IMG/VR virus record: IMGVR_UViG_2537562172_000007
Direction: 5' to 3' (one strand)
Length of the DNA stretch: 24,154 nt
Source: a virus
Lineage: Duplodnaviria; Heunggongvirae; Uroviricota; Caudoviricetes
The notes beneath the pieces are model-generated. The model did not search any database. It saw nothing but the letters and a program-made list of their open reading frames with translations, and was not told the origin of the DNA. Shown in pieces: positions 6,774 to 24,154 of the stretch. Position numbers and translations under genes: made by a program. Each line of letters begins with the position of its first letter. Positions within the stretch are counted from its first letter, which is position 1.

Positions 6774-6830
6774 AGCAATTTAGATAATCGTGCAGACTAC
6801 GCCCCCTCATATCACATGGAAGGTTTATCT

Positions 6831-7241: not shown

Positions 7242-7392
7242 ACCATAACGTCCGGCTTCTCTCACTCCTGAGCCGGACTGCATTGGTTTAATAAAAACCA
7301 TCAACAATTGTGATTTAGATATTCGGAACCATTCAAATATAACAAAACCCCGTAAAAACGAGGTTTATGGATAAATTTTATTATTGAATACA

Positions 7393-7566
7393 TCAGATTA
7401 AATTAATCTTGACATCATAGCTTTCAAGACCCGTCATTTTTTCCCGTGCGGTAAACTGAATACTGGTAACTTCTTTCCCGGTCTTTTTCTTAAGTTCAAT
7501 AATTTTTTTTGTTATATATTCAGAAATATCTGCTTCTGCTTTTGTTTTTAAGTTTTCAATATTCAT
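7393..7566 (-). CDS. gnsB: GnsA/GnsB family small protein, 57 aa
   Basis: Manually translated MNIENLKTKAEADISEYITKKIIELKKKTGKEVTSIQFTAREKMTGLESYDVKINLI; AAGAGGAAA Shine-Dalgarno upstream; absent from the ORF track because under 60 aa. Confidence 0.75.
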   Translation of the reverse strand: MNIENLKTKAEADISEYITKKIIELKKKTGKEVTSIQFTAREKMTGLESYDVKINLI

Positions 7567-7737
7567 CATTTCCTCTTTTAGTCTGTTATGACTTTCCAGT
7601 TACACAGTAAGTCGATTATATGGTGCAAACGTGTAAAAGATAAGATGAAACATCGCAATAATCAACATACGATAGTCTAAATTTTACACAAACAGACAAA
7701 GAGAATTTTCCTGAATTATCAATGCAATAGCATCAAA

Positions 7738-7893
7738 TCAACTCAAGAGCCTTATTGCTGCTTCCAGAATTTCTTCTGAAGTAACATGTCGATCCGCGGC
7801 TACATAAATGACTTTATGATCTCCGGTCAGAGATGGAAACCCTGCGGCCATTACAGTAAGGTGTGTTTTTTCGCCATTTGGATATTCACGCAT
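7738..7893 (-). CDS. ynfN: small cold-shock-associated prophage protein, 51 aa
   Basis: 63-aa ORF; internal ATG at 7893 (MREYPNGEKTHLTV...) gives the recalled 51-aa YnfN length. Confidence 0.65.
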   Translation of the reverse strand: MREYPNGEKTHLTVMAAGFPSLTGDHKVIYVAADRHVTSEEILEAAIRLLS

Positions 7894-8010
7894 GATGGTG
7901 TTAACTCCAGTCATCGCTGGCACTACCACTGCTGGTTCAGAGTTAAAAAAACTATGATTTTTTTCATGATGTTACCGTAGTATGTGAGTATCCATCGAAT
8001 AGACACCAAG

Positions 8011-8031
8011 CAAAAAAGCTCCCGAAGGAGC
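8011..8031 (-). terminator. rho-independent terminator candidate between cspI and ynfN
   Basis: Minus-strand hairpin GGCTCC-TTCG-GGAGC followed by TTTTTTG. Confidence 0.5.
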
Positions 8032-8238
8032 CTTCATTTTCACTTTTTTAAATCCAACGACAGACGGCTGGCATTTAAGTATTGTGAAATATTATCAAAT
8101 GTAATCATCATTGATTTACAAAAGATACATTTTGCCCCGAAAGGATTCATGTCAGAAACATCAAAAGATGATGTTCTATACTGGGAACCATGACAACACG
8201 GGCATCTAAAGTGAATATGGTTTGTAATATTGTCTACC

Positions 8239-8451
8239 TCAAAGCGCCACTACATGAACAGCGGCAGGACCTTTAGGTCCGTTCTCAATACCAAATTCAA
8301 CTTCCTGATTCTCAGTTAATGTTTTGAAATCGTTGCTCTGAATTGCTGAGAAATGGACAAACACATCTTTGCTGCCATCTTTCGGCGTGATGAAACCAAA
8401 ACCTTTTTCAGGGTTAAACCATTTCACTAAACCAGTCATTTTGTTAGACAT
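8239..8451 (-). CDS. cspI: CspA-family cold shock protein
   Basis: 70 aa with cold-shock domain motifs KGFGFI and VFVHF; sequence consistent with recalled CspI. Confidence 0.9.
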
Positions 8452-8813
8452 AATTATTACCTTTTGAAGAAATTAGCCCTTGGGCAGAATGGTCCGAAAA
8501 AAAATATCAGAGAGAAAAACCAACAAGGAAATCTCAAGAGGTACAAATAATAAAATTATAACAATGACTGCTTCAGATAAATTTGTAACAAACCAGAACA
8601 CCATTAACGCATGATTAACCACCCATAGCAAGGATTACTTTTGTAAAGAAAAACACAGCAATGAAAGAATAGCTTTATTTATTAATAAAACGTGTCATTC
8701 TGATTAAGACCTTTTATCTTACCCTTAAGATTTCAGGAATTTTGGCTCATGGAAGAGTCCTTTTTATTTAAATTTTACATTCCGCGATGTAAATGTTCCG
8801 ATTTAATATTACC

Positions 8814-9837
<1,024 letters not shown>

Positions 9838-9841
<4 letters not shown>

Positions 9842-10149
9842 AGATATTTATGATGAGGACGCTCGTGCTTATTGGCAGGATTTTCAATCTTAAAGGAGTA
9901 CTGATGCTGCAGATAAGACTCAACTTTTTCTGACAATTTTTCTGCTACTTCCAGGAAGACTTGCCGGACGCTCCTTCTGGCTGCTGCCTCATAAAACTCC
10001 AGCGCAGCTCCTTCAACACGGTCCATGGCGACATCCAGGTCAAAAATTTCACCGTCAAAGCGTTCTTTGTCCTGTAAGGCTACAGTTACCGTAACTTTAT
10101 TCTCAAAATTACGGACTCCTTTCACAACCAGTTCATAGTCTTGAGTCAT
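9838..10149 (-). CDS. ydfR: DUF1327-like prophage protein
   Basis: 103-aa ORF between holin and endolysin, as recalled for Qin. Confidence 0.7.
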
Positions 10150-10153
10150 TGGA

Positions 10154-10369
10154 TTACTCTCCTCTCGCAGCCTTACGCCTGTCTTCTTTAATCTTGAAAT
10201 AAAGATTTGTCAGATACGTCAGCAGGCCAAAAACCAGGCTACCCAGCACACCGATTGCAGCCCACTGTGACGGAGTTACTTTATCGAGTAACTGCAATGC
10301 CCAGAAACCAGCATTACCCGCCGATGTGCCATAGGCAACACCTGTTGTTAACTTATCCATTGATTTCAT
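10154..10369 (-). CDS. essQ: class II holin (phage 21 S-like pinholin) with dual-start motif
   Basis: ATG at 10369 gives 71 aa starting MKSMDK (Met1-Lys2-Ser3-Met4 dual start as in S21); two TM segments; the ORF track's longer 96-aa start is unlikely. Confidence 0.85.
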
Positions 10370-10588
10370 ATCCTCACCCCGATGTACACGGATGGTGCAA
10401 TATGTTTGAAAAGATCGGAGTCTACGGGGTAGTTTTGACAGCACACGTTGTTCTCAACGGCGCTAAAAAAACATACACATTAAAAATGTGGGTAATTATT
10501 TTGAAAGAAAGTCATATATAAAATAATAATACGAGAAATGTTTTCATATTTAGTGTACTGTATACGGCCATTTATACAGGAAAAGCCT

Positions 10589-10759
10589 ATGTCAGAACGT
10601 AAAAACTCAAAATCACGCCGTAATTATCTCGTTAAATGTTCCTGCCCAAACTGCACCCAAGAGTCAGAACACAGTTTTTCAAGAGTACAAAAAGGTGCCC
10701 TTTTGATCTGCCCTCATTGCAACAAAGTATTCCAGACAAATCTTAAAGCTGTAGCCTGA
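10589..10759 (+). CDS. small zinc-ribbon protein (CSCPNC...CPHC), 56 aa
   Basis: ORF 10538-10759; internal ATG at 10589 has AGGAAAAG upstream; two CxxC pairs; antisense to the late operon. Confidence 0.45.
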   Translation: MSERKNSKSRRNYLVKCSCPNCTQESEHSFSRVQKGALLICPHCNKVFQTNLKAVA

Positions 10760-10814
10760 TTGATTTTATTAGTAACAAGTATTTTTTATATTTTAATAAT
10801 ATATTTAAAGCAGA

Positions 10815-10838
10815 TAATAAAAAACCCGCCTGAGCGGG
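10815..10838 (-). terminator. rho-independent terminator downstream of cspB (possibly bidirectional)
   Basis: Minus strand: CCCGC-TCAG-GCGGG followed by TTTTTTATTAT. Confidence 0.6.
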
Positions 10839-11122
10839 TTTGAGATTGTGGTGCTTTTTGTGGGAGTCATCCACTTACGCACTTTGTTTTGCCATGCCAG
10901 CAGTTAGCTTCTGCTGTAAAACTATTCATGCAGCAAACCTGCACTTCACCACAATGGTTAGCATACTTTTCCTGATTAAGATTTTGCCAAATATGCTAGC
11001 CATTGTTTCATGTATTGGACCTCCTTACTTTTTATTAAAGAGATCCAATATTCACTACTCTGTCCGTATCTCTACTCAGGCATCAGCCTTCTTCGTTATC
11101 GTATACAGACGAGCGATGAATT

Positions 11123-11338
11123 TTAATCAGTAATGATGACATTTGCTGCTGCAGGACCTTTAGCACCACTCTCTATAGAGAAGGTAACCTTTTGACCTTC
11201 AAATAAGGTTCGATAATTATCATTCTGAATCGCAGAAAAATGCACAAACACATCTTTACTACCATCAACAGGAGAAATAAAGCCGAAACCTTTATCAGCG
11301 TTAAACCATTTTACTAAACCAGTCATTTTATTTGACAT
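11123..11338 (-). CDS. cspB: CspA-family cold shock protein
   Basis: 71 aa [34 protein letters not shown]...; matches recalled CspB. Confidence 0.9.
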
Positions 11339-11638
11339 TCTACATTCCTTAACTTGAGCCTTTCGGCATAAATGGTTTGCATAACAGAAACGACTTCGTA
11401 CTTAATTGGAGAGACTCAAAGAAGGAATAAGTGAATAACACCTGAAATGAGAACTGCTTTAGTAAACTACTTCGTATATCGTCTGTTCTTCAAACCGACG
11501 CAATCATTAACGCATAGTTGAACATATGAAGCAATGTTTATTTTAGACATCCAGCCATCTTCAACCCCATCAAAAAACTATAGCTTTCTTCAGGAACGTG
11601 TGTATAGTGCGCCAAGTTATCAGTATTAAGGAATTTTT

Positions 11639-11851
11639 TTGTCCCGTAAAATGACAGGAATTGTCAAAACCTTTGACGGCAAAAGCGGCAAGGGTCTTAT
11701 CACCCCATCCGATGGTCGTATCGATGTCCAGCTTCATGTTTCAGCGCTCAATCTCCGCGATGCAGAAGAAATTACCACCGGATTACGCGTGGAATTTTGC
11801 CGGATAAATGGTCTGCGTGGCCCTTCAGCTGCCAATGTTTACCTTTCATGA
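11639..11851 (+). CDS. cspF: CspA-family cold shock protein paralogue
   Basis: 70 aa [37 protein letters not shown]...; divergent from cspB. Confidence 0.9.
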
Positions 11852-12136
11852 GCTATATTAAAGCTTTAATTTCAGGCCCCATCGGATCACACATGGAGAG
11901 TTTTTATGAATAACCCCGTCTGTCTTGATGACTGGTTGATTGGCTTTAAAAGCTTATGCTGTACTTTGGCCGTAATAGCTCTGCTAATAATATAATAAGC
12001 AGACTCATTGTGTTTAGGGACATTGTACTGGAAGAAAACATTTTAAACATCAGGCAAATAACCAAGTCACCAGCTAAATAATAAGTTAACAGACATGAGT
12101 CCCGGGATGAGATTCAACATTACCATTGCCCCATTT

Positions 12137-12163
12137 AAAGCACAAAACCCGCTCATCAGCGGG
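12137..12163 (-). terminator. tR'-like intrinsic terminator downstream of the late promoter
   Basis: Minus strand: CCCGCT-GATG-AGCGGG followed by TTTTGTGCTTT. Confidence 0.6.
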
Positions 12164-12212
12164 TTTTCTACTTTTTCTTAACGTCGGGTATACAAAGCCC
12201 ATCGTTGAAAAA

Positions 12213-12241
12213 ATTTTATCCATATTTTTTGAAAAATGCAA
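12213..12241 (-). promoter_or_regulatory. pR'-like late promoter (-35 TTGCAT, 17-bp spacer, -10 TAAAAT)
   Basis: Near-consensus sigma-70 hexamers on the minus strand about 35 bp downstream of the quuQ stop and about 50 bp upstream of the terminator hairpin. Confidence 0.5.
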
Positions 12242-12272
12242 ACATCATGTCGCCATCTTCAGCAAAAATCAT

Positions 12273-13025
12273 TTATCTCGTCACCTTCCTCAATTGCGCT
12301 TCCGCGTATGCTTCTTCCTGCCAGCACTTTGTTACCAGTTTACCAATGACGTCCGCATACCCCTTATACCACTGATAATCGGTCAGGTCTGGTACCAGCT
12401 TCTGGACATGACGTCGTGCCAGCGTGGTCGGTAAACGACTAAACCGGTTTCCATTACAACGCCCACAAATCTTATATACCGGTACGCCATGAAACCGGGT
12501 TCTTTTTTCATCCAGAACAATCCCTTTACCCTTACACCCTCTGCACGCTGTGCTGGCTTCGCCCTTACCATGGCAATGCTGACATAGTTCCTTCACCCAT
12601 TCTTCCTTGATTACAGATTCCCCGCGTCTGTAGTGTTTCACCACTTCGCGCAATACATTATAAAATCCCGTACCTGAACAATGCTCACAGCGAGCCTTAC
12701 TTGCCGCAGACCTGGAGTAATCAGCAAAGGCAAAACTCACGAGGTAAGGAATAATCTGTAACCGGATTTCTTCACTCAATTTGTTCAATGTCGGGTTATC
12801 CAGTGCCATCGCGTAATTTAGCAGGCCTTCAATCGCAAACTGAGGGTCCTGAACACCAACTTTTGCCAGAAATAAGGCCAACCCAAGTGGTGCTTTCGAC
12901 TGCACCATCCCCTGCGCTGCCATTACATCCGTAATTGTTAAACAACCGGTGCCTGTCGCTGGAGCGTCATCGCTCAATTTTGGAGATTTTGGGGAGTAAT
13001 ATTTTGGTAAGGCTTCAAGGTTCAT
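12273..13025 (-). CDS. quuQ: late-gene antiterminator Q
   Basis: ATG at 13025 gives 250 aa (MNLEALPKYY...); Cys/His-rich zinc-binding region; the ORF track start at 13055 is a TTG. Confidence 0.85.
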   Translation of the reverse strand: MNLEALPKYYSPKSPKLSDDAPATGTGCLTITDVMAAQGMVQSKAPLGLALFLAKVGVQDPQFAIEGLLNYAMALDNPTLNKLSEEIRLQIIPYLVSFAFADYSRSAASKARCEHCSGTGFYNVLREVVKHYRRGESVIKEEWVKELCQHCHGKGEASTACRGCKGKGIVLDEKRTRFHGVPVYKICGRCNGNRFSRLPTTLARRHVQKLVPDLTDYQWYKGYADVIGKLVTKCWQEEAYAEAQLRKVTR

Positions 13026-13038
13026 GCTCGTTCTCCAC

Positions 13039-14088
13039 TTACGCCAGTACGCCAATTGCCAGCGCGCGATCGATAAAACGAAATATCAGCTCCAGTTGGG
13101 AGCCATACTTATCTTCAAATGCCACTGTATCCGTATGCAGCTCGTTGTGATGCTTTCTGCACAAAGGCAACACAAAGAGATCATGTGCTTTTGTTCCCAT
13201 TCCGCCCTGCCCGTGACCAATCAGATGATGCGGATCGTCGGCTGGCATACCGCAGCAAGCACACGGCTGTGTCTTAACCCAACGTGTGTATTTCTCCTTA
13301 ACCCAGCGGCGACGTTTAGGCAGCTTCATGAAAGATTCCGGAGACTCTGGATCAACGGTGATGCTTACCACCGTCTTTTCCTGTGGTGATTTTTGTTGCT
13401 GGTGGGCGTAAGGCAACGGTGCAAGATTTTTTGTGCGTTGTTTCAATATGCTGGTGGCGGTCTGCTCTCCCGGTACGATGTCGCTTTCGCGGTACACCGA
13501 GCAGATTTTTTCCGCTGGTAATCCCAGCGAACGACGCGATACAGCCTCAGGTAGTGCATCCACCACCTGATTGCAGACCGCCCACCAGGATAATTCAGCC
13601 AAAGATAATTCCCGCTCCTGCGTACCGCTTATTGCGTGACGGATGACGTCAATCACCCATGCTGTCAGATTTTGTTGAGCAAGCAGCTCCAGTGATTCCG
13701 ATGTCTGGTCACGCAGTTGGTTGTCGCAGTGCCAGCACAACACCATTGCGCCGGTACCATAACGGTGAATGACTGTTTCAGTGTGATGGTAATCGCCATT
13801 AGGCCACTGGCAGGATGTAACATGACGTAATAGCCAGTCGGACAATGCGCCAACGCCGCCAGCAGCACGAATCACCCGTTCGTTACTAAAAAACGGCAGC
13901 AATGTTTTGTCTTCCGCCAGCGGCTGGCGAACGGCAGGAACGACTCCGGATGGCAGATTACGCATGCTTTTTGGTTCCGGTTCCACCAGCACTCGAGGAT
14001 TATGAAATATCTGTATGGATTCACGGCCCGGCTTAAGGACCACCAGCCCAAGCTCAGGCACCAGAACAGGTCTAAGTAATACCCGCAC
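13039..14088 (-). CDS. ydfU: DUF968-like prophage protein with C-terminal HNH-like motif
   Basis: GTG start at 14088 preceded by TGGAGGTAAC; 349 aa; C-terminal motif CACCG...HHLIGHGQGG...PLCRKHHNELH fits the HNH pattern. Confidence 0.75.
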   Translation of the reverse strand: MRVLLRPVLVPELGLVVLKPGRESIQIFHNPRVLVEPEPKSMRNLPSGVVPAVRQPLAEDKTLLPFFSNERVIRAAGGVGALSDWLLRHVTSCQWPNGDYHHTETVIHRYGTGAMVLCWHCDNQLRDQTSESLELLAQQNLTAWVIDVIRHAISGTQERELSLAELSWWAVCNQVVDALPEAVSRRSLGLPAEKICSVYRESDIVPGEQTATSILKQRTKNLAPLPYAHQQQKSPQEKTVVSITVDPESPESFMKLPKRRRWVKEKYTRWVKTQPCACCGMPADDPHHLIGHGQGGMGTKAHDLFVLPLCRKHHNELHTDTVAFEDKYGSQLELIFRFIDRALAIGVLA

Positions 14089-14089
14089 G

Positions 14090-14368
14090 TTACCTCCAGA
14101 TCCGTTGCTGGAAAGTGCGGGACGCACGTGGTGGGCGTTCGGAATAAGGCAGCCTGACAGAGATTATCCAGTGCCGATAGTCGAGACTGAGAGCTTTCTT
14201 AACCTCGACCCCGCGCCTGCGGTAAGAATGAATCAGCCATTCGGCCTGTTCTGCAGTGCATGGAGGGTGCTGGAACCATTCAGACTTGAATGCGTGAGAA
14301 TACCGCCCGTGCGTGCAGGCAAGAACGGGCGAATTATCAGAATTGTAATATTTTGCGTTGCGTGCCAT
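14090..14368 (-). CDS. hypothetical 92-aa protein translationally coupled to ydfU
   Basis: ATG at 14368 with GGAG 9 nt upstream; stop TAA is 1 nt before the ydfU GTG and embedded in its Shine-Dalgarno sequence. Confidence 0.45.
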   Translation of the reverse strand: MARNAKYYNSDNSPVLACTHGRYSHAFKSEWFQHPPCTAEQAEWLIHSYRRRGVEVKKALSLDYRHWIISVRLPYSERPPRASRTFQQRIWR

Positions 14369-14434
14369 CGGTTTTCTCCGGTGGCACGGTGTTACTCAGC
14401 GGGAGTTCAGCCCCGCGCAAGATTGTAGATGAGT

Positions 14435-14686
14435 TTATTCTCCTGAAAAAGCAGAAAAGCCAGCTTTTATTCCGATCTCTTTCAATGCCTGTAATGAAGT
14501 GACAAACTCACCTTCGCGCAAGATAAATCCGTCCGTGACCCGAGCATCCACAAAATTAATTAACGCAGCCCCATTCTTTCGCAAACACATAATGCGGTAA
14601 TGACTAACAAGATTTCCATTTTCAACGCACACAGCATAGAGGCCATCTTCACAAAAAATTTTACGCAGTTCTTCGATGTTCATCAT
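14435..14686 (-). CDS. rem: Rem, small prophage protein of unknown function
   Basis: 83 aa MMNIEELRKIFCEDGLYAV...; GGAAGGA Shine-Dalgarno; position as in Qin. Confidence 0.8.
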   Translation of the reverse strand: MMNIEELRKIFCEDGLYAVCVENGNLVSHYRIMCLRKNGAALINFVDARVTDGFILREGEFVTSLQALKEIGIKAGFSAFSGE

Positions 14687-14902
14687 CAGAATCCTTCCGG
14701 ATAATTAGCTCTCCCCTTTAAGGGACCATCCCTCTTATCCCTGCGCGCTACTTAAGTATTTTTGATTCTATTCCGGCACCGTCCAGAACTTCAAACGCGT
14801 TGAAAATAAAAACAAAAACCCGCCGAAGCGGGTTAAGTGCGGGTGCGTTGAGGATGCCTGCCACATCAGAGGTGGCGAGGGATTTCTCCCCCGCCGGGTC
14901 TC

Positions 14903-15058
14903 TTACTCCTCAGGTTCGTAAGCTGTGAAGACAGCGACCTCCGTCTGGCCGGTTCGGATTCGTACCTCGCAGAGGTCTTTCCTCGTTACCAGTGCCGTCA
15001 CTATGACGGTTAAACAGATGACGATCAGGGCGATTAACATCGCCTTTTGCTGCTTCAT
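14903..15058 (-). CDS. hokD: Hok-family type I toxin (RelF), 51 aa
   Basis: Manually translated MKQQKAMLIALIVICLTVIVTALVTRKDLCEVRIRTGQTEVAVFTAYEPEE; under the 60-aa cutoff; downstream of relE. Confidence 0.85.
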   Translation of the reverse strand: MKQQKAMLIALIVICLTVIVTALVTRKDLCEVRIRTGQTEVAVFTAYEPEE

Positions 15059-15129
15059 AGCCTGCTTCTCCTGTCAACGCAAAGCAGAAGTGTCACCTTC
15101 GGTGCGAAACAGAGATGTCATGCTTTGGT

Positions 15130-15417
15130 TCAGAGAATGCGTTTGACCGCCTCGCTATATACTTCCGAGCGTTCTCTTTTCCCAACAGAAATCACGAAAA
15201 CGACAACTTTCTCGTCTATAACCTGGTATACAAGGCGATAGCCTGAAGACCGGAGCTTAATCTTGTAACAATCAGGCATACCACGGAGCTTGTTTGCTTC
15301 AATCCGGGGTGACTCAAGTACTTCAACCAGCTTCTTTTTCAACTGTTCACGTACCGTCGAGCCCAGCTTTCGCCATTCCTTTAGTGCCCGCTCGTCAAAA
15401 TCCAGAAAATACGCCAT
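15130..15417 (-). CDS. relE: RelE mRNA interferase toxin
   Basis: 95 aa MAYFLDFDERALKEWRKLGSTVREQLKKKL...; start overlaps the relB stop. Confidence 0.9.
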   Translation of the reverse strand: MAYFLDFDERALKEWRKLGSTVREQLKKKLVEVLESPRIEANKLRGMPDCYKIKLRSSGYRLVYQVIDEKVVVFVISVGKRERSEVYSEAVKRIL

Positions 15418-15656
15418 CAGAGTTCATCCAGCGTCACACGTACTGGCTTAGGATTACGAAGCCGTTCTTTCACTATCTCCACAAGTTCAGCATCTTCATC
15501 ACTCAGGAGTGTCTGTTTGAACGGCAAGCGTTCATTGTCAGCGATATACTCGAGCATGAGACGAAGCGCTTCAGAAGGAGTTACACCCATTTTTTCAAGC
15601 GCGGCGTAAGAACGCGCTTTAAGTTCATCGTCAATACGCAGGTTAATGCTACCCAT
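15417..15656 (-). CDS. relB: RelB antitoxin
   Basis: 79 aa MGSINLRIDDELKARSYAALEKMGVTPSEALRL... with RHH-like N-terminus. Confidence 0.9.
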   Translation of the reverse strand: MGSINLRIDDELKARSYAALEKMGVTPSEALRLMLEYIADNERLPFKQTLLSDEDAELVEIVKERLRNPKPVRVTLDEL

Positions 15657-15668
15657 GTCTTACACCTC

Positions 15669-15693
15669 TTGTAATTACAAATGTCATTACAAG
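15669..15693 (-). promoter_or_regulatory. relBE operator (relO) palindromic repeats
   Basis: Perfect palindrome TTGTAATTACAA followed by TGTCATTACAAG immediately upstream of relB. Confidence 0.6.
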
Positions 15694-15986
15694 TATCGCA
15701 CTACAACATGCTTAGGGCAAGTCACGAAGGAAGTCAGAAAGTAGTCGTAAGAACGGTGATCACTGTCCGCTTTGTGCCAGGAGCAGCCATTGCTAAGTCC
15801 ATCCTGTATTGTGCAGGTCAGCTCGTTTTTAAAGAGTCCGGCCATCATCTTACTGGTACAGACACCATATACTTTGTGACGGTCAGGCTACATATGCACA
15901 ACTCAACTTATTCATCTATTTTTTGCTTTAGCATGTCAGTGTTGCTTTCTCGTCGGCGGGTGAGCGGTGACCTGACCTGTCGATAA
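15681..15986 (+). CDS. ydfV: prophage protein YdfV
   Basis: 101-aa ORF divergent from relB; its first ATG lies inside the relO repeats, so the true start may be the internal Met at codon 10. Confidence 0.55.
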   Translation: MSLQVSHYNMLRASHEGSQKVVVRTVITVRFVPGAAIAKSILYCAGQLVFKESGHHLTGTDTIYFVTVRLHMHNSTYSSIFCFSMSVLLSRRRVSGDLTCR

Positions 15987-16138
15987 AGGAACGTAACACG
16001 TTTTATGCAACACCCGCATGCGGCAGAAAATTATTGCCGAACGTTTACCCCTGTCAACAAGCTTTACTTTCTGAGGCGCGCCAGCCCGCGAGGAAAACAA
16101 TCTGAACATCAAACAATTAATGACACAAGAAATACGAT

Positions 16139-16165
16139 TAAAGATTTTTTTGTGCATGCCGATAG
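16139..16165 (+). promoter_or_regulatory. sigma-28 (FliA) class 3 promoter for flxA
   Basis: TAAAGATT, 11-bp spacer, GCCGATAG against the TAAAGTTT-N11-GCCGATAA consensus, about 25 bp upstream of the flxA ATG. Confidence 0.7.
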
Positions 16166-16188
16166 TGCTTTTTTAAAAGGAGAAATCT

Positions 16189-16521
16189 ATGTCTGTCACA
16201 ATTCAGGGAAATACCTCAACCGTTATTTCAAACAACTCCGCCCCGGAAGGAACATCAGAAATAGCCAAAATCACAAGACAAATTCAGGTGCTGACTGAAA
16301 AGCTTGGGAAAATCTCATCGGAAGAGGGGATGACGACACAGCAGAAAAAAGAAATGGCTGCATTGGTACAGAAGCAAATTGAAAGCCTCTGGGCTCAACT
16401 GGAGCAGTTGTTAAGGCAGCAGGCAGAGAAAAAGAATGAAGACGCGACAGTTCAGCCTGATAAAAAAGAAGAGAAAAAAGACGATACAAATACCGCTGGC
16501 ACCATTGATATTTACGTCTAA
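16189..16521 (+). CDS. flxA: FliA-regulated protein FlxA
   Basis: 110-aa ORF with Gln/Lys/Glu-rich coiled-coil-like sequence; AAGGAG Shine-Dalgarno; sigma-28 promoter upstream. Confidence 0.85.
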   Translation: MSVTIQGNTSTVISNNSAPEGTSEIAKITRQIQVLTEKLGKISSEEGMTTQQKKEMAALVQKQIESLWAQLEQLLRQQAEKKNEDATVQPDKKEEKKDDTNTAGTIDIYV

Positions 16522-16536
16522 GTGACAGCCGTATTG

Positions 16537-16560
16537 TGGCCCTCATCGGGCCACTTTTCG
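16537..16560 (+). terminator. rho-independent terminator of flxA
   Basis: GTGGCCC-TCATC-GGGCCAC followed by TTTT, 16 nt after the flxA stop. Confidence 0.65.
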
Positions 16561-16608
16561 CCATCAGCCTTTTCTTTAAAGACATATTATCTTTGTATCA
16601 TTTCTGAT

Positions 16609-18457
16609 AGTTAACATTACAAGATATAAGTAATGGACGCACTCCCAATTAGTCTATTTAAATCGCCACGAGTTTAACTGACAACCCATGATCAATTATG
16701 AATTGCAACTATTTCTGTAGTCACTTTTGTGGGGACAGTCCACAAAACTGCCAACATCCGCTTCTTGCTCTTAGCGGACATTAGCATAGGCTATTTACCA
16801 TAACGCCTCATTACGCGCACCGCCCAGACTGACTCAGCGCGTTTCTGGCATATCCCCGGTAAAACAAGTAACAAACCACCCGAAAATGAACACCAGAAAC
16901 GCGACTTAAGAATCTACCCTATGAATGGATATGCACTCAACCGAATCGATCTTGGTTTCAATCTTTTTTATCGGGATCAGGCTTCTTTTTAGGTAACTTC
17001 GGGGGCTTAACTTGCTGATGACTTTGCGTTCGGCGCGTAAGCCAGGGATGGTCAGCTTTAGGTTTAACATAGTATTTTGAGCGTAAATCAATACGGGCAT
17101 TATCCACTCGTTCATGGACACTCTTTTCATCATCCAGTGGTATAGGCTCCGGGCCATCAACATACTTTTCCCAGCCCAGCGCTTTCCCGTCATACAGAAC
17201 GTTAATTTCACCGTCAAAGTTCTCGCATACAGTAACAACCGAATGCCTAAGTCGATATCCCCGGCCCTCACTGCGTACCTGAAACGCACTGCTTTTGTAC
17301 TGGAAAGTGAGATTTTTAGACAGAACGCGCTTCGCCTGTAGGCTGAAGATATAACCCAGTTCCTCTTCAGAATGGTGCACATCAAGATGAGCATTATCAG
17401 TAGTACGAGGCGACGTAGCGAACCGGTTGTTATAGGCTTCAATAAAGGTCGGCAACCATGCATTTGCTGTTTCAATATCACTGATATTCTGAAGCCGCAT
17501 TTCTTTGACCAGCCTGTCCTGTAGTGTCTGATTGGCGCGCTCTACCCGCCCTTTTGCCTGCGGGCTGTTGGCATGGATTGGCTCGATGCCCAGTGTCTTT
17601 ATCGCACGAGTGAACTGGGTCAGCTCACCTTCCCGCTCTGGGTTATTTACCCTGAATATACTGTGTCTATCAGAGTAGAGAGCGAGCGGTACGCCATGAT
17701 CATTAAGGTAACCCCGGAGGGTTTCCATGTAAGCCCGGGTTGTTTCAGCAGGCACAAAACGCAACGCCATCAACGCACTGGTGGCATCATCAATGAAAAC
17801 GATCAGTGTACATCTGGGGCCTCGATTTTCAAACCAGTCATGAGGTGAGCCATCAATCTGGATCAGTTCACCGTAAGATGGTCGTCGCATGCGGCGTTGA
17901 TATATACGGGCAATTTTACGACGGCGTTCACGCCATAACCCCTCTTCTATCATCCACTTTCTGAGAGTTTCAACGGATAAAGATAAACCGTGTATCTCGC
18001 GCAATTTTTCGCACGCAAACGTAGGTCCAAAATCAGCGTAACGGCCTTTGAGGAGTGAAATTACTGTTGCTCTGAATTCAGTAGAAAAGGAATTATTAGG
18101 ACGCTTTCCACGTCGGTGGGAAACCAGACCAGAAGGCCCTTCATTTCTATACCGTTGCACCAGACGTTTAACCTGCCGAATAGAAATGCCAATGCGTGCC
18201 GCAGCTTGTTCCTGAATAATCTGAAGTCGGTGGAGTTCCTTATGACTCATCGTAACAGTCTCTTTGATCATGAAAAATCCCCCAGAGAATTGTCTGGGGA
18301 CATTTTAGAATGGTTCAAAGGGGACATTACAGCTTGGTGTTAACAATAGCCTGCTTCTCCGTGCCTTTCGGCACGTAAGAGGCTAACCTACATGTGTCTA
18401 GCATGAAATTGGCCTCAGATTAATGTTAAGCGTCTTGCAGGACGCGTAATGTTAACT
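16609..18457 (-). mobile_element. insertion sequence carrying one rve-type DDE transposase (family unassigned, IS481/ISNCY/IS21-like); boundaries tentative
   Basis: Tentative ends from a perfect 12-bp inverted repeat: AGTTAACATTAC at 16609-16620 and GTAATGTTAACT at 18446-18457; no target-site duplication recognised. Confidence 0.35.
16958..18271 (-). CDS. DDE transposase, retroviral-integrase (rve) fold with N-terminal HTH
   Basis: 437 aa; HTH region (IGISIRQVKRLVQRY), catalytic-core motifs LIQIDGS, ALYSDRHSIF and SPQAKGRVERAN; GGGGGA Shine-Dalgarno upstream of the ATG. Confidence 0.85.
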   Translation of the reverse strand: MIKETVTMSHKELHRLQIIQEQAAARIGISIRQVKRLVQRYRNEGPSGLVSHRRGKRPNNSFSTEFRATVISLLKGRYADFGPTFACEKLREIHGLSLSVETLRKWMIEEGLWRERRRKIARIYQRRMRRPSYGELIQIDGSPHDWFENRGPRCTLIVFIDDATSALMALRFVPAETTRAYMETLRGYLNDHGVPLALYSDRHSIFRVNNPEREGELTQFTRAIKTLGIEPIHANSPQAKGRVERANQTLQDRLVKEMRLQNISDIETANAWLPTFIEAYNNRFATSPRTTDNAHLDVHHSEEELGYIFSLQAKRVLSKNLTFQYKSSAFQVRSEGRGYRLRHSVVTVCENFDGEINVLYDGKALGWEKYVDGPEPIPLDDEKSVHERVDNARIDLRSKYYVKPKADHPWLTRRTQSHQQVKPPKLPKKKPDPDKKD

Positions 18458-18605
18458 GGGGCTTTTCTCTATCTGCCGTTGGTGTCCATGCCCGAGGCAG
18501 ATAGCCTCAAGCACCCGCAGTCATTCTACTTAACTAAGATTTCCCCGCAAACCGTTTTTGTCCAGCACAGTAAATATCCAACTAAACCAATGGAGTTCGC
18601 TGTAT

Positions 18606-18785
18606 TTACCGCCAGTATTCAATGCACATGACCGCCATGAACACCCCTAAAAAAAGGGCATTTATATATCCAAATATTAATATCAAAACATCAACTTTTT
18701 CCATATACCTTGCTGTGAAGATGATGGGCATACATGATGCGAACAACCAGAACGCAACAAACAAAAACTGCAATGCGTTTTTCAT
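18606..18785 (-). CDS. small two-TM membrane protein, 59 aa
   Basis: ATG at 18785 preceded by AGGAGG with 4-nt spacer; MKNALQFLFVAFWLFASCMPIIFTARYMEKVDVLILIFGYINALFLGVFMAVMCIEYWR has two hydrophobic helices. Confidence 0.4.
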   Translation of the reverse strand: MKNALQFLFVAFWLFASCMPIIFTARYMEKVDVLILIFGYINALFLGVFMAVMCIEYWR

Positions 18786-19564
18786 TATTCCTCCTACAAT
18801 CAATGTGCAATTACATTTAAACACACCTCAATTTGGCCGGACATATAAATATCTAAACCAGAAAAAATCACTTACATAGCGTTACAAACTCTTTAGTCTA
18901 AAGGTTCATCGTAAAACATTCCCCATACTTATCAGTCCGTTCCGCGCCAGGTAGCTCATTGCCTTATCTGGCAACCTGTAATCAGGTTTCCGCTTTTTCA
19001 GTTGGCTGGTCGTTTAACCGACATAGTTAATCCATTAATCTAGTTGCCGGATGTTGGTGGATTTTCGCGTTTTAGTTGTTCATAAAAGTGCACAGCTTTA
19101 ACCAGTTCTTCTGATGTAACTGGGACTGGTGAGGCAGTGAATAAGGCCTGAATTTGATAGTTCGGCCTGTCGTTACAATCCTCTTTTTTCGGTACATATT
19201 TCCAGTCACCAGACCACTACTTCCCCTGAAAGTCCGTAACGCCTTTTTTCACGTAGCGATATCGCCATGCCACTGGTTTTGCTTGCCCCGCCGTTTCATG
19301 CCCTTCCTGATAATTAATCTCGCTCATTCATCGCCCCACTCATCACAATATGCTTCGACCGGAGTTTTTCCCGCTTCATAGTCATCACGCTAGGATTCGA
19401 CATCAGCAGCACTTCCACCGCGTAACTCACCATAGTCCATTAATAGTTCATCCCGCTCTTCAAAACTGATGTTATATTTAGCTGAACAAAAATCAGCCAC
19501 TTTGTTCTTCCTCATCGTCTTTTATTTCGTGGTATGAGTAATTGCAGTAGTTAAAGAAAATTTC

Positions 19565-19675
19565 TTATGCTCCGTCATGAATTTCCTCAGGTGTTGCGTC
19601 ATCGTCCACTTCGAATACATCCTCAAAATCTCCACCAGCTATTCCCGTTTCAATAATAATTTTGAACTTTCGCAT
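19565..19675 (-). CDS. hypothetical acidic 36-aa protein (MRKFKIIIETGIAGGDFEDVFEVDDDATPEEIHDGA)
   Basis: Manual translation; a GCCGCCC-GAAA-GGGCGG hairpin sits directly upstream of the ATG with AGGAGG further 5'; very tentative. Confidence 0.2.
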   Translation of the reverse strand: MRKFKIIIETGIAGGDFEDVFEVDDDATPEEIHDGA

Positions 19676-19937
19676 TTCACTACCGCCCTTTCGGGCGGCC
19701 TCCTGATGTTCTGAGGGTGCAGAAATCCATCCGGTTAAGGATTAAATTTTATTTACAGAACTGAATTTAATTATTCAGATATACGTATCTGTAGCCTTAC
19801 GAATCTACTCACTGGATGCCTCTTTCATAAAAATAATCCAGTGGGTTTTATCGTTTTTTCCCTGTTCGTTGACAGATAACAGGTTTTCTGTCTGTCAGTG
19901 CCAGAATCTGGCTTACCGGTATTTGCGTTTCATTCCA

Positions 19938-20294
19938 TTAAAAAATCAGAACGCCGTGCGGCCTCAACACCCGAAAGGCTTCTTTAAATCTCTGTCGCGA
20001 ATCATCACGCCAGGCATCTTTATTCAGCCGTCCATATTTCTTTCCCATCCAGGCGTTATCACCAACACTCTCAAGATACGGAGGGTCTAATACAACCATC
20101 GAAAAAGATGCGTCTGCAAATGATAATGCACGAAAATCTGCGATAATGTCAGGGCTGATAATCAAGCGTCTCCCATTGCGTAATGTGTATCCTTCTTTTC
20201 TGATATCGCTGAATATCGCCCGTTCGTCAGACTTATCGAACCAGAACATGCGGCTGCCACAGCACATATCAAGAATGGTTGCCGGTGCACTCAC
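19938..20294 (-). pseudogene. N6-adenine/N4-cytosine (Dam-like) DNA methyltransferase, N-terminal fragment
   Basis: 118-aa ORF with SAM-binding motif I (ILDMCCGS) and catalytic motif IV (DPPY); ends before any target-recognition or C-terminal region; no MTase-like continuation in any frame downstream. Confidence 0.6.
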
Positions 20295-20557
20295 TGCGCC
20301 ACGTCCTGAAAATTACCCTGATAGAAAGCCAGTATGCGCTGCATAACTTCGCTCTTCCGGCACTCGCGACAGATTATGTTTAGGCGACTGTCGTAGCGAC
20401 GTATTTCTCCGTCAGGTGATGACCAGATAAGGTCCGGATCAACCACAGCAGGTTTCTTCACCTTTGCCCTCGAGAGTTTTTTGCGGGCGTTTTGCCAGTC
20501 CTTACGCGCCTGTTCAGAGGGGAATAACCCGTATCCGGAGCTTAAGTTGCACGCCAT
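20291..20557 (-). CDS. hypothetical protein overlapping the methyltransferase fragment start (GTGA overlap)
   Basis: 88-aa ORF with no Shine-Dalgarno at its ATG; an internal GTG at 20461 with GAGGG upstream would give 56 aa. Confidence 0.3.
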   Translation of the reverse strand: MACNLSSGYGLFPSEQARKDWQNARKKLSRAKVKKPAVVDPDLIWSSPDGEIRRYDSRLNIICRECRKSEVMQRILAFYQGNFQDVAQ

Positions 20558-22508
20558 TGGGTGGGTTAAGCATAAATGTATTCCTGGTGCTAAATGGCCC
20601 GAAATTCAGGCAGAGATGCGCATCTGGAAAAAACGTCGCGAAGGTGAACGCAAGGAAACCGGAAAATACACGTCTGTTGTTGATCTCGCCCGCGCCAGAG
20701 CCAATCAACAGTACACTGAAAATTCAACAGGAAAAATCAGCCCGGTCATTGCTGCCATTCATCGCGAATACAAGCAGACATGGAAAACACTGGATGACGA
20801 ACTGGCCTACGCTCTCTGGCCTAGTGATGTGGATGCCGGAAACATTGACGGCAGCATCCATCGCTGGGCAAAAAAAGAAGTTATCGACAACGACCGCGAA
20901 GACTGGAAGCGTATCTCGGCATCAATGCGCAAACAGCCTGATGCCCTTCGCTACGACCGCCAAACTATTTTTGGCCTTGTCCGTGAGCGTCCGATCGACA
21001 TTCACAAAGATCCCGTAGCACTGAACAAATATATCTGCGAATACCTGACGACAAAGGGCGTGTTTGAGAATGAAGAAACAGACCTGGGCACTGTTGATGT
21101 TCTCCAGTCATCAGAAACACAAACTGATGCAGTGGAAACTGAGGTATCTGATATCCCAAAAAATGAAACCGCGCCGGAAGCTGAACCATCTGTAGAGCGT
21201 GAGGGGCCGTTCTATTTCCTCTTCGCAGATAAGGACGGAGAAAAATACGGTCGCGCAAACAAACTCTCTGGTCTGGATAAGGCACTGGCTGCTGGCGCCA
21301 CTGAAATCACAAAAGAAGAATATTTTGCCCGAAAAAATGGCACATACACGGGCTTACCGCAAAATGTAGATACCGCTGAAGATTCAGAACAACCAGAGCC
21401 GATAAAAGTTACCGCTGACGAAGTAAACAAAATTATGCAGGCAGCCAATATCAGCCAGCCTGACGCCGATAAGTTGCTTGCTGCATCACGTGGTGAATTT
21501 GTTGAAGGGATTAGTGACCCGAATGATCCGAAATGGGTTAAGGGGCTCCAGACCCGCGATTCTGTGAACCAGAACCAGCATGAATCGGAACGGAACTACC
21601 AAAAAGCGGAACAAAACAGTCCAAATGCGTTACAAAACGAGCCAGAAACGAAACAGCCTGAACCAGTAGCGCAACAGGAAGTGGAAAAAGTCTGCACCGC
21701 CTGCGGTCAGACCGGCGGCGGCAACTGCCCTGATTGTGGCGCGGTGATGGGCGACGCAACATACCAAGAAACATTCGATGAAGAGTATCAGGTTGAAGTT
21801 CAGGAAGATGATCCGGAGGAAATGGAAGGCGCTGAACATCCACACAAGGAGAACACTGGCGGCAATCAGCATCACAATAGCGATAATGAAACTGGCGAGA
21901 CGGCAGATCACCCAATTAAGGTGAACGGTCATCACGAAATCACATCCACCAGCAGGACGTGTGACCATCTAATGATCGACCTTGAAACCATGGGAAAAAA
22001 TCCTGATGCCCCGATCATCTCAATAGGTGCAATATTTTTCGATCCGCAAACCGGAGATATGGGACCGGAATTTAGTAAGACTATCGATCTGGAAACTGCT
22101 GGCGGAGTCATTGATCGGGACACCATTAAATGGTGGCTTAAGCAATCACGCGAAGCGCAATCTGCCATTATGACCGATGAAATCCCGTTAGATGATGCAC
22201 TGTTACAATTGCGAGAATTTATCGACGAAAACTCCGGTGAATTTTTTGTTCAGGTTTGGGGAAATGGAGCCAACTTCGACAACACGATTTTGCGCCGTTC
22301 ATACGAACGGCAGGGGATCCCCTGCCCGTGGCGTTACTACAACGATCGCGATGTACGCACAATCGTTGAGCTGGGGAAAGCCATAGACTTCGATGCCAGA
22401 ACGGCTATTCCATTCGAAGGTGAGCGCCATAATGCACTTGATGACGCCCGTTACCAGGCAAAAATACGTTTCAGTTATCTGGCAAAAACTGATCCCGAGT
22501 CAGGCTGA
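20481..22508 (+). CDS. phage exonuclease with C-terminal DnaQ-like (DEDDh) 3'-5' exonuclease domain
   Basis: Exo motifs MIDLETMG, WGNGANFDNTIL and HNALDDARYQ in the last ~190 aa; acidic low-complexity linker with CTACGQTGGGNCPDCG zinc ribbon; start uncertain (TTG at 20481 or ATG at 20616). Confidence 0.8.
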   Translation: MRAFCQSLRACSEGNNPYPELKLHAIGWVKHKCIPGAKWPEIQAEMRIWKKRREGERKETGKYTSVVDLARARANQQYTENSTGKISPVIAAIHREYKQTWKTLDDELAYALWPSDVDAGNIDGSIHRWAKKEVIDNDREDWKRISASMRKQPDALRYDRQTIFGLVRERPIDIHKDPVALNKYICEYLTTKGVFENEETDLGTVDVLQSSETQTDAVETEVSDIPKNETAPEAEPSVEREGPFYFLFADKDGEKYGRANKLSGLDKALAAGATEITKEEYFARKNGTYTGLPQNVDTAEDSEQPEPIKVTADEVNKIMQAANISQPDADKLLAASRGEFVEGISDPNDPKWVKGLQTRDSVNQNQHESERNYQKAEQNSPNALQNEPETKQPEPVAQQEVEKVCTACGQTGGGNCPDCGAVMGDATYQETFDEEYQVEVQEDDPEEMEGAEHPHKENTGGNQHHNSDNETGETADHPIKVNGHHEITSTSRTCDHLMIDLETMGKNPDAPIISIGAIFFDPQTGDMGPEFSKTIDLETAGGVIDRDTIKWWLKQSREAQSAIMTDEIPLDDALLQLREFIDENSGEFFVQVWGNGANFDNTILRRSYERQGIPCPWRYYNDRDVRTIVELGKAIDFDARTAIPFEGERHNALDDARYQAKIRFSYLAKTDPESG

Positions 22509-22587: not shown

Positions 22588-22839
22588 ATGAGCGAAGTAA
22601 TCATGATTGTCTCTCCCGGCAAATGGGTATCCGAAGAGCAGTTAATTGCGCTGAAAGGAATAAAAAAAGGTACGTTAAAAAAGGCCCGGGAAAAATCGTT
22701 TATGGAAGGAAGGGAATATAAGCATGTCGCTCATGACGGTATGCCATGGGATAACAGTCCATGCTTTTACAACCTGGAAGAAATTGATCGCTGGATTGAG
22801 CGCCAGGCATCAGCGAGACCAAGACGTCATCTTACTTGA
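22588..22839 (+). CDS. excisionase-like small DNA-binding protein
   Basis: 83-aa basic protein immediately upstream of the integrase, same strand; no strong sequence match recalled. Confidence 0.55.
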   Translation: MSEVIMIVSPGKWVSEEQLIALKGIKKGTLKKAREKSFMEGREYKHVAHDGMPWDNSPCFYNLEEIDRWIERQASARPRRHLT

Positions 22840-22858: not shown

Positions 22859-24154
22859 ATGAGAGAAGTTGAAATGAAATATCCGACAGGCGTGGAAAAC
22901 CATGGAGGGAAATTACGTATCTGGTTTGTTTATAAAGACGTAAGAGTCAGGGAAAATCTGGGGGTTCCTGACACAGCAAAAAACAGGCGCGTTGCAGGTG
23001 AACTACGCTCCTCTGTTTGTTACGCAATAAAAACTGGTGTTTTCGACTATGCAAAACAGTTTCCCTCCTCACGCAATCTGGAAAAATTTGGTGAGGCCCG
23101 ACAAGATTTAACCATAAAAGAACTGGCTGAAAAATTTCTGGCACTGAAAGAAACTGAAGTCGCCAAAACATCACTCAACACATACCGTGCCGTCATCAAA
23201 AATATCCTGAGCATAATCGGTGAAAAAAATCTTGCCTCATCGATTAATAAAGAAAAATTACTGGAGGTTCGTAAAGAGTTACTGACTGGATACCAGATCC
23301 CCAAAAGTAACTATATTGTTACACAACCAGGGAGATCGGCTGTAACTGTAAATAATTACATGACAAATCTTAACGCCGTGTTCCAGTTTGGTGTTGATAA
23401 CGGTTACCTGGCAGATAATCCGTTTAAGGGGATCTCGCCATTAAAGGAATCAAGAACCATTCCGGATCCTCTTTCGCGGGAAGAATTTATCCGTCTTATC
23501 GATGCGTGCAGAAATCAGCAAGCAAAAAATTTATGGTGTGTTTCTGTTTATACTGGAGTTCGCCCTGGTGAGCTGTGTGCACTTGGATGGGAGGACATAG
23601 ATCTGAAAAATGGAACAATGATGATCAGGAGAAATTTAGCAAAAGACCGTTTCACGGTACCAAAAACACAGGCGGGAACCAATCGGGTCATTCATCTTAT
23701 TAAGCCAGCAATCGACGCTCTCCGGAGTCAGATGACATTAACGAGACTGAGCAAAGAGCATATCATTGATGTTCACCTCAGAGAGTATGGCAGAACAGAA
23801 AAACAAAAATGCACCTTTGTTTTTCAACCTGAAGTGTCAGCGAGAGTAAAAAATTATGGTGACCATTTTACCGTTGACTCAATAAGGCAGATGTGGGACG
23901 CAGCGATAAAACGTGCCGGACTCCGCCATCGAAAATCATATCAGTCGAGACATACTTATGCCTGCTGGTCGCTGACAGCTGGTGCTAACCCGGCATTTAT
24001 AGCAAACCAGATGGGCCATGCAGATGCGCAAATGGTATTTCAGGTATACGGAAAATGGATGTCTGAAAACAATAATGCACAGGTAGCTTTGTTAAATACA
24101 CAGTTAAGCGAGTTTGCCCCAACCATGCCCCATAACGAAGCAATGAAAAATTAA
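22859..24154 (+). CDS. tyrosine integrase (phage integrase family)
   Basis: C-terminal catalytic residues in context (RPGELCAL, HTYACW, Y in YGKWM); N-terminal arm-binding-like region; ATG at 22874 has the better Shine-Dalgarno (GAGAAG); stop at the window end. Confidence 0.9.
   Translation: MREVEMKYPTGVENHGGKLRIWFVYKDVRVRENLGVPDTAKNRRVAGELRSSVCYAIKTGVFDYAKQFPSSRNLEKFGEARQDLTIKELAEKFLALKETEVAKTSLNTYRAVIKNILSIIGEKNLASSINKEKLLEVRKELLTGYQIPKSNYIVTQPGRSAVTVNNYMTNLNAVFQFGVDNGYLADNPFKGISPLKESRTIPDPLSREEFIRLIDACRNQQAKNLWCVSVYTGVRPGELCALGWEDIDLKNGTMMIRRNLAKDRFTVPKTQAGTNRVIHLIKPAIDALRSQMTLTRLSKEHIIDVHLREYGRTEKQKCTFVFQPEVSARVKNYGDHFTVDSIRQMWDAAIKRAGLRHRKSYQSRHTYACWSLTAGANPAFIANQMGHADAQMVFQVYGKWMSENNNAQVALLNTQLSEFAPTMPHNEAMKN

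Follow-up and report, generated by a model that had tools for sequence, protein, structure and literature searches.

The Qin-type cryptic prophage in record IMGVR_UViG_2537562172_000007 (24,154 nucleotides (nt); the whole stretch analysed is hereafter the window) raises the question of what became of its immunity and division-inhibition module, dicC-dicA, dicF and dicB, and whether a transposase gene downstream of flxA had a part in the loss. An earlier note on this DNA had proposed that an insertion sequence (IS) sits where K-12 Qin carries its immunity region, and that the module was deleted or replaced, plausibly by the IS. Here we find instead that the locus is best explained by two independent events. 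A relBE-bearing transposon of the IS1202 family inserted into a prophage hok/sok locus, and a separate deletion of 4,608 bp removed the dic genes. We put the probability of this account at about 0.85.

Structure and ends of the transposon

The mobile unit spans 15072-18345 (3,274 bp) and contains tnp, flxA, ydfV, relB and relE. In the orientation of the transposase, the layout is left terminal inverted repeat (IRL), tnp, flxA, ydfV, relB, relE and right terminal inverted repeat (IRR; Table 1). The transposase-proximal end was fixed by comparing 79 loci that encode relatives of the transposase. IRL starts TGTTAACACC... at 18345 and IRR ends ...GCGTTGACA at 15072, and the reverse complement of IRR, TGTCAACGCAAAGCAGAAGTGTCACCTT, agrees with IRL at about 21 of 28 positions in a hand alignment. 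The unit therefore has the TGT...ACA ends and imperfect inverted repeats of about 24-28 bp of the IS1202 family. The GTGACACTTCTGCTTTGCGTTGACA-type end is the distal IRR terminus, upstream of the Shine-Dalgarno sequence (SD) on the hokD side, and this IRR resembles that of simple-IS relatives in Hahella and Chromatiales. Directly outside both ends lies the 15-mer GGAGAAGCAGGCTAT, identical at the two ends in the window, W5-6 and EA7. Its length is within the 15-17 bp of ISTde1-type direct target repeats, and four other contexts have duplications of 15-16 bp. From the ACA/TGT-type ends and the matched 15-mer we conclude that 15072-18345 has family-type ends and a 15-bp target-site duplication (TSD).

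Homology with copies in other contexts ends near 16753-16767, at a palindrome (...AATGTCCGCTAAGAGCGAGAAGCGGA). In ISfinder, the 1,609-bp ISEsa1 probably has its right end at this inner boundary, judging from the listed length. As a candidate for the true IRR, near 16757, the boundary was rejected: it is a poor match to both IRL and the family IRR, the orientation of its box is wrong, and no duplication flanks it in any copy examined. The mobile unit of the window does not end just past tnp, at about 16757, as the ISfinder element would.

The earlier note had put the element ends at 16609 and 18457, the outer positions of a perfect 12-nt inverted repeat (16609-16620 and 18446-18457). We rejected this pair as well. 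It lies outside all comparative boundaries, even that of the transposase arm at about 16757, and such a repeat turns up in 23% of shuffles, so it is at chance level. Its arms belong to different evolutionary units, one being transposon cargo and the other native hok leader that is present in empty sites.

The only open reading frames (ORFs) of the element are tnp, flxA, ydfV, relB and relE. An AAA+ regulator and TniQ are absent from it, and the element does not have the Tn7-like combination of TnsB, TnsC and target selectors (TnsD/TniQ, TnsE or CRISPR).

Table 1 Features of the window around the transposon and the deletion junction
Feature	Position	Strand	Basis or comment
hokD, Hok-family toxin, 51 amino acids (aa)	14903-15058	-	ORF list, PGAP annotation; now third after relB-relE
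TSD, hokD-side copy	15057-15071	-	GGAGAAGCAGGCTAT (hok SD + 'AT' of ATG)
IRR (distal)	15072-15099	-	...GGTGACACTTCTGCTTTGCGTTGACA-3'; same sequence at far end of plasmid copies
relE	15130-15417	-	NCBIfam; type II toxin-antitoxin, conserved right-arm module with relB
relB	15417-15656	-	NCBIfam; type II toxin-antitoxin, conserved right-arm module with relE
ydfV, variable cargo	15681-15986	+	annotation of near-identical DNA
flxA, variable cargo	16189-16521	+	annotation of near-identical DNA
Inner boundary of conserved transposase arm	16753-16784	-	palindrome TGTCCGCT..AGCGGA, not a family-type IRR
Transposase, IS1202/ISNCY family (ISEsa1 type), 437 aa	16958-18271	-	Pfam, NCBIfam, K-12/plasmid comparison
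End of K-12 homology, inside transposase gene	17142-17143		left endpoint of the 4,825-bp K-12 deletion
In-frame 27-bp deletion site	18210-18220	-	QESINRHIT lost, between TTCAGGA/CTCAGGA repeats
IRL	18296-18345	-	5'-TGTTAACACCAAGCTGTAATGTCCCC..., second AATGTCCCC box; boundary at 18345 in >10 contexts
Orphaned hok/sok 5' regulatory half (sok/mok leader)	18345-18516	-	Rfam RF01794
TSD, sok-side copy	18346-18360	-	GGAGAAGCAGGCTAT
Decayed prophage early-right genes	18906-20557	-	Pfam, W5-6 and EA7 annotations
Frameshifted hypothetical gene	within 18906-20557	-	early-right block
DUF7167 pseudogene	about 19493-19675	-	early-right block
Methyltransferase gene	19938-20294	-	early-right block
DUF977 gene, 5'-truncated	20291-20557	-	early-right block
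Junction of the 4,608-bp deletion	20531-20540		microhomology GTA(G/T)CCGGAG, 2.2 kb from element
Exonuclease gene, 5'-truncated	20531-22508	+	K-12 ydfE is part of this gene
xis	22588-22839		after exonuclease gene
int	22859 to beyond 24154		after xis

The transposase

The 437-aa ORF matches Pfam HTH_32, HTH_29 and HTH_28 in its N-terminal part, together with rve_3. The NCBIfam model NF033594, 'ISNCY family transposase', gives a score of 456 bits, its cutoff being 250. The protein thus combines the helix-turn-helix (HTH) and DDE (RNase H-fold) domains of the IS1202 family with a match to the family model, and the rve-type transposase that the earlier note saw downstream of flxA is confirmed. The window protein shares a conserved GRVERANQTLQ motif with the plasmid and Hahella proteins, with Q seven residues after the conserved E. 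By analogy, this E may be the catalytic residue.

Counterparts on IncF plasmids are 446 aa long, share 98-99% nucleotide identity, and are named 'IS1202-like element ISEsa1 family transposase'. The window protein equals plasmid WP_004196353 (per annotation) save for a 9-aa deletion. The lost stretch lies just ahead of the HTH domain and has a counterpart with partial similarity in the Hahella protein. Metagenomes hold both forms of the element, at 3,274 bp and 3,301 bp. Many complete genomes carry DNA identical to window 16400-18700, where PGAP calls 'ydfW' and a partial 'ISNCY family transposase'.

K-12 homology extends 185 nt into the transposase gene and stops at 17142, and the final 49 residues of the window protein agree with K-12 YdfW at 100% identity. 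The transposase therefore does not stand in place of an integrase remnant, as had been suggested; ydfW is the last 49 codons of the same gene.

The interrupted hok/sok locus and its empty site

The insertion separates the two halves of a hok/sok locus. The sok/mok leader matches the full Rfam sok model (RF01794; 104 bits, E=5.6e-23) and adjoins IRL directly, with its end reading ...GGCACGGAGAAGCAGGCTAT/TGTTAAC (the slash marks the boundary). Features of the hok leader are a TAGCCTCTT box, a stem-loop and the SD. On the same strand, 3.3 kb downstream, hokD is preceded by ...GGTGACACTTCTGCTTTGCGTTGACA/GGAGAAGCAGGCTATGAAG; its NCBIfam Hok-family matches lie below the curated cut-off. An intact hok/sok locus has its leader contiguous with the hok coding sequence, and here 3,274 bp of transposon lie between them.

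To search for the empty site we joined the sok side to hokD through a single 15-mer. This synthetic query aligns as a single piece at 98.9-99.3% identity in many genomes, and at least 80% of it is covered in one place in 2,915 of 5,426 complete E. coli genomes. In CP53, for example, a Qin-type prophage between int and ydfJ has an uninterrupted hok/sok with a single 15-mer, reading ...ggcaaGGAGAAGCAGGCTATgaagcag..., without relBE, flxA or the transposase. The IRL-sok junction of the occupied site is present in 678 of the 5,426 genomes.

We propose that an IS1202-family cargo transposon inserted into the prophage hok/sok and duplicated the 15 bp GGAGAAGCAGGCTAT. This would have orphaned the leader at 18346-18516 and left hokD its SD and ATG directly downstream of relE, creating the relB-relE-hokD operon known from K-12. 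Co-transcription of relB-relE-hokD has been reported (Gotfredsen & Gerdes 1998, as cited in PMC5120126), and it would fit a duplication that leaves SD and ATG directly after relE and IRR. Sok would be unable to act on the hokD message, since its target region was left upstream of the transposon. In K-12, a later loss of IRL, most of tnp and the sok leader would explain why hokD is without sok/mok. Ramisetty and co-workers described relBE as integrated next to hokD from plasmids (PMC6379469); the portion of their text considered here describes no transposon, ends or duplication for this integration.

Other occupied sites

Units bounded by the same IRL and IRR, some with other cargo, lie between different, internally matched duplications elsewhere. 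An Enterobacter IncFIB/FII plasmid (L004) has a 3.3-kb unit with the same cargo as the window and the duplication GGAGAAGAAGGCCAT. In a Phytobacter IncF plasmid (L085) the unit is 12.8 kb, with 10.5 kb of ncr/chr genes (ncrABCY, chrBA and others) replacing the cargo, and the duplication is GGAGAAGTCAGCTAT. The 6.1-kb unit of IncHI2 plasmid pAUSMDU8141-1 (L160) carries ISEsa2, cytochrome b and a CDF transporter and is also flanked by GGAGAAGAAGGCCAT, at a different hok allele. Metagenome contig L089 has a 7.7-kb unit with a 16-bp duplication, GGAGATGTATGGGTCC. In all four, relB-relE is just inside IRR and a hok leader is outside IRL. The window and Phytobacter copies share only 18360-16753 (IRL, tnp) and 15783-15057 (relB, relE, IRR), and this right arm, 15057-15783, is 98.5% identical.

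These locus-specific matched duplications indicate that transposition has taken place more than once, in one and the same register, at different hok loci. Because the matched pairs differ between loci, a single ancient insertion, or homologous transfer together with flanks, is ruled out. The duplicated 16-mer of L089 consists of hok 'GGAGA' and the apparent terminus of an unrelated IS3-like element, so the register is set by the upstream hok leader rather than the hok ATG region. Target choice by the transposase may therefore depend on a feature of the hok leader immediately upstream of where it cuts.

A simple relative provides a comparison for the ends. Hahella sp. SMD15-11 carries a 1,449-bp IS, with a transposase of 62% aa identity, in at least 10 copies (ten were fetched). 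Each of the nine examined has its own 15/16-bp duplication of unrelated sequence, with IRL TGTTAGCCCAAAGCTGTAATGTCCCC and IRR ...GGGGACATTTTAGAATTGGGTTGACA. The Hahella IRR resembles the distal IRR of the window, unlike the inner boundary. This IS looks clean, apparently active and non-site-specific, and is a useful reference for the true ends of the family.

Several further copies show variations. Metagenome contig UMGT01015729.1 (L158) has a 3,274-bp copy with unmatched flanking 15-mers (GGAGAAGCAGGCTAT vs GGAGTTGTATGGGTC), the pattern expected from recombination between two copies at different hok sites. In Leclercia sp. EMC7 (L021, about 1410-1426), ...TTGACA+GAAGGCTATG stands ahead of IRL. 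It looks like an IRR-type terminus belonging to another copy, some 10 nt from IRL, and suggests tandem or nested insertions at one hok site. A variant of ISEsa1 at about 90% identity occurs in many plasmid records, including large IncHI2 plasmids, with 492 covering at least 80% of the query. In this variant (L160 about 15700-17400; L007, L010, L013), the IS110-family ISEsa2 lies at the inner end of the transposase arm. On the opposite side, the hok leader adjoining IRL has the IS3-like ISKpn8 immediately upstream. The ISEsa2 insertion may have contributed to how ISEsa1 was delimited.

Loss of the dic module

Searches of the whole window by tblastn and blastn gave no match to DicA, DicC, DicB, YdfA-D or dicF (best tblastn E at least about 1), and the window does not carry the Qin immunity and division-inhibition module. 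Among ORFs of at least 50 aa in 16560-20480, no repressor-type HTH is seen beyond the transposase's own. The earlier note had found no cI/cro-like repressor ORF in this interval, and that holds; the dicA/dicC-like pair that would have spoken against it is not in the window.

EA7 retains what the window has lost. At the same locus, EA7 has flxA, the ydfW/ISEsa1 transposase gene, a hypothetical gene, the methyltransferase gene, DUF977, a 322-aa hypothetical gene and a YdaT-family gene. These are followed by a Cro/CI gene (dicC type), an HTH gene (dicA type), ydfA, ydfB, ydfC, dicB and ydfD, and at the right end by the full 823-aa exonuclease gene, xis, int and rspB. In EA7 the element and a complete dic module thus coexist, separated by 4 kb. 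The window lacks coordinates 12137-16744 of EA7 (L005; 4,608 bp), and elsewhere the two are collinear at 97-99% identity. Different segments of EA7 are missing from K-12 (8713-13537; 4,825 bp) and from W5-6 (12606-17021; 4,416 bp).

At the endpoints of the window deletion, EA7 reads ...CCCGTAGCCGGAG/TTG... on the left and ...CATGTATCCGGAG/CTT... on the right, and the window reads ...CCCGTATCCGGAGCTT... The deletion took the 5' part of the DUF977 gene, an O-like gene, ydaT, dicC, dicA, ydfABC, dicF, dicB and ydfD, and also the first 488 nt of the exonuclease gene. A tblastn similarity to ydfE from 20469 was discarded as mere alignment extension, exact identity beginning at 20531. The window junction allele is present in 90 of the 5,426 complete genomes and the K-12 junction in 360. 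As a deletion allele of a decaying prophage, already known from sequenced genomes, the dic loss is unremarkable.

We suggest that this later deletion was RecA-independent and arose by slippage between the copies of the imperfect 10-bp repeat GTA(G/T)CCGGAG. It would have joined the DUF977 gene to the exonuclease gene, at codon ~164 of the latter, and removed replication genes along with dicC/dicA, ydfABC, dicF, dicB and ydfD. K-12 and W5-6 would have undergone separate, independent deletions of the same ancestral layout. The K-12 deletion spans from within the transposase gene to within the ydaT-like gene, which makes ydfW/ydfX a deletion scar, and it would have removed the 5' two-thirds of the transposase gene and the sok leader. 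It is only because of this 4,825-bp deletion that the element remnant in K-12 abuts dicC. The element therefore does not sit in place of the K-12 immunity region: in K-12 itself, the corresponding site is occupied by the 3' part of this element.

The right endpoint of the W5-6 deletion (window 20807-20809; L001 24697/24698) lies within 2 nt of the K-12 IS2E-ydfE join (L002 22844/22845). This closeness could be a coincidence, a fragile site, or the trace of a former IS2 in the W5-6 lineage.

Alternative explanations

An IS that inserted at the immunity region and then removed or replaced dicC, dicA, dicF and dicB by an IS-mediated adjacent deletion would account for a transposase gene between flxA and the remaining early genes and for the absence of the dic module, and IS elements often cause adjacent deletions. 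The deletion itself stands; IS mediation we regard as scarcely credible. Both element ends adjoin intact 15-bp duplications, so no deletion began there, and the junction, 2.2 kb off, falls in a microhomology shared by two phage genes. Comparison with Qin-like prophages, which the earlier note had recommended, also speaks against it, since EA7 has the element together with the full dic module and K-12 retains a piece of the element in the same position. Exchange of the module by homologous recombination with another lambdoid prophage lacking immunity genes is very unlikely. Lambdoid prophages are mosaic, and the dicC/dicA alleles of K-12 and EA7 differ (alignment gap at K-12 L002 19759-20261), but the junction contains no foreign DNA. 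Both sides are 99.3% identical to EA7 and meet in the 10-bp microhomology inside two truncated genes.

It is also unlikely that the mobile unit is the 1.6-kb ISEsa1 only (IRL to about 16757, no TSD), with the two copies of GGAGAAGCAGGCTAT representing conserved SD regions of two paralogous hok loci and relBE-flxA being separate. In favour of this, the 8-mer GCTTTGCG of the hokD-side leader also occurs in what we take to be the R1 hok leader, and a 1.62-kb unit recurs at 96-98% identity in differing Scandinavium and Dryocola contexts. The ISfinder listing (1,609 bp, IR 15/22, no TSD; quoted in PMC10132070) agrees with the shorter unit. Yet the flanking 15/16-mers vary between loci and match within each, in five contexts, and the joined flanks give the uninterrupted hok/sok found at the same locus of other strains. 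The ACA-ended sequence at the hokD-side repeat fits IRL and the simple-IS IRR far better than the inner boundary does. The L089 16-mer includes an unrelated IS end, and so it is not a conserved hok SD-ATG region.

Some observations weigh against the account of a hok-directed transposon followed by a separate deletion. The copy at locus L020 occupies the same 15-mer in opposite orientation, and non-hok sequence stands at one end in about 9 of 22 enterobacterial loci and in 8 of 73 metagenome contigs. Either the targeting is a preference, or these copies have been rearranged. In Scandinavium and Dryocola the transposase arm occurs alone and stops at the inner boundary; the short 1.6-kb unit may also move, or recombine. 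No distal IRR or second copy of the duplication was found within the 1.5-kb flanks of 18 enterobacterial genome loci, flanks that are too short for this purpose. EA7 serves as a proxy for the ancestor by inference, and the case is wholly comparative.

Comparison with known systems

Members of the IS1202 family have TnsB-like transposases and TGT/ACA ends, and some carry passenger genes. Its subgroups make repeats of 5-6, 15-17 or 27-28 bp, the ISTde1 subgroup 15-17 bp, and one subgroup targets Xer sites (PMC10132070; bioRxiv 10.1101/2022.12.17.520857). The window element shares with this family (formerly the ISNCY/IS1202 group), and with ISTde1-type members and ISEsa1, an HTH + DDE transposase that passes the ISNCY model, and with IS1202/ISTde1-type elements the Q seven residues after E, TGT...ACA ends with an internal GGGGACA-type box, duplications of 15-16 bp, and passenger genes, which some members have. 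It differs from the ISfinder entry for ISEsa1, listed with 1,609 bp, weak inverted repeats (15/22) and no TSD (PMC10132070), in that the duplicated unit is 3.3-12.8 kb long and ends beyond relBE. The ISfinder entry thus seems to have been given the wrong limits; its 'no TSD' status would follow from that.

The ISAjo2/ISAba32 subgroup, found at pdif/dif (XerCD) sites, likewise has a single TnsB-like transposase with no accessory targeting proteins, and its insertions are oriented and keep a constant spacing from the sequence that is recognised beside the cut (PMC10132070; bioRxiv 2022.12.17.520857). In contrast, its duplications are 5-6 bp, compared with 15-16 bp for ISEsa1-type units, and it recognises Xer sites rather than the hok translation-initiation leader. 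The orientation of ISEsa1-type insertions is also not absolute (L020). Other chromosomal hok loci have been cut off from their regulatory elements by a mobile element, as hokD has been here. The window element differs in bringing its own type II toxin-antitoxin operon, whose transcription would read into hok, and ISEsa1-type insertion points are reproducible to the nucleotide across hok alleles. Hok-leader targeting is not described for the IS1202 family in the literature searched, and no paper linking the IS1202/ISEsa1 family to hok or relBE was found, although the literature coverage is incomplete.

We lean towards a broader view, in which ISEsa1-type elements are the transposase arm of relBE-bearing cargo transposons that home, helper-free, to hok leaders on plasmids and prophages. 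With each insertion, hok would pass from antisense control by Sok to transcriptional control by relBE, and the K-12 relB-relE-hokD (relBEF) operon would be a truncated product of one of these insertions. The cargo among these units includes flxA/ydfV, nickel and chromate resistance genes, and a CDF transporter. If this is correct, hok leaders would join Xer sites as a second type of site-directed insertion in the IS1202 family. The transposon would also be a concrete mechanism for the position of relBE, among the most studied toxin-antitoxin operons, in front of hokD and for a hokD without sok/mok, and it would serve as a vehicle by which cargo for metal resistance reaches the leading regions of IncF and IncHI2 plasmids.

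Prophage context

The window represents an E. coli Qin-type prophage between ydfJ and rspB, the same locus as in K-12 MG1655. Identity to K-12 is 98.6% over 1-4070 and 99.9% over 5623-17142 (nohA to ydfW), in line with the earlier note's view that gene order from ydfK to flxA follows K-12 Qin. The match resumes at 20531-20809 (part of ydfE) and at 22995-24154 (intQ). The right arm of the transposon, IRR and the hokD-side duplication are common to both. K-12 differs in having lost IRL, most of tnp, the sok leader and nin/replication genes while keeping dicC through ydfE. The window retains the complete transposon and the sok leader, and is missing the genes from dicC to the 5' end of the exonuclease gene. 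IS2E and a truncated intQ are further features of K-12.

Window 4071-5622 has no K-12 match; K-12 has stfQ and the 5' end of nohA there, and the W5-6 counterpart carries the annotation of a gene for a phage terminase large subunit. Mosaicism thus extends to the tail-fibre/packaging end of the prophage. Within the early-right block, W5-6 has an ISEc22 (IS66-family; L001 21061-23163) inserted at window 19460-19468, with about 9 bp found on both sides, and the window is without ISEc22. Rfam matches at gathering level also include an IS009 RNA (221 bits, 3341-3539, minus strand) near pinQ/tfaQ, and two cspA-type thermoregulator leaders (8212-8597 and 11107-11499, both minus strand) upstream of cspI and cspB.

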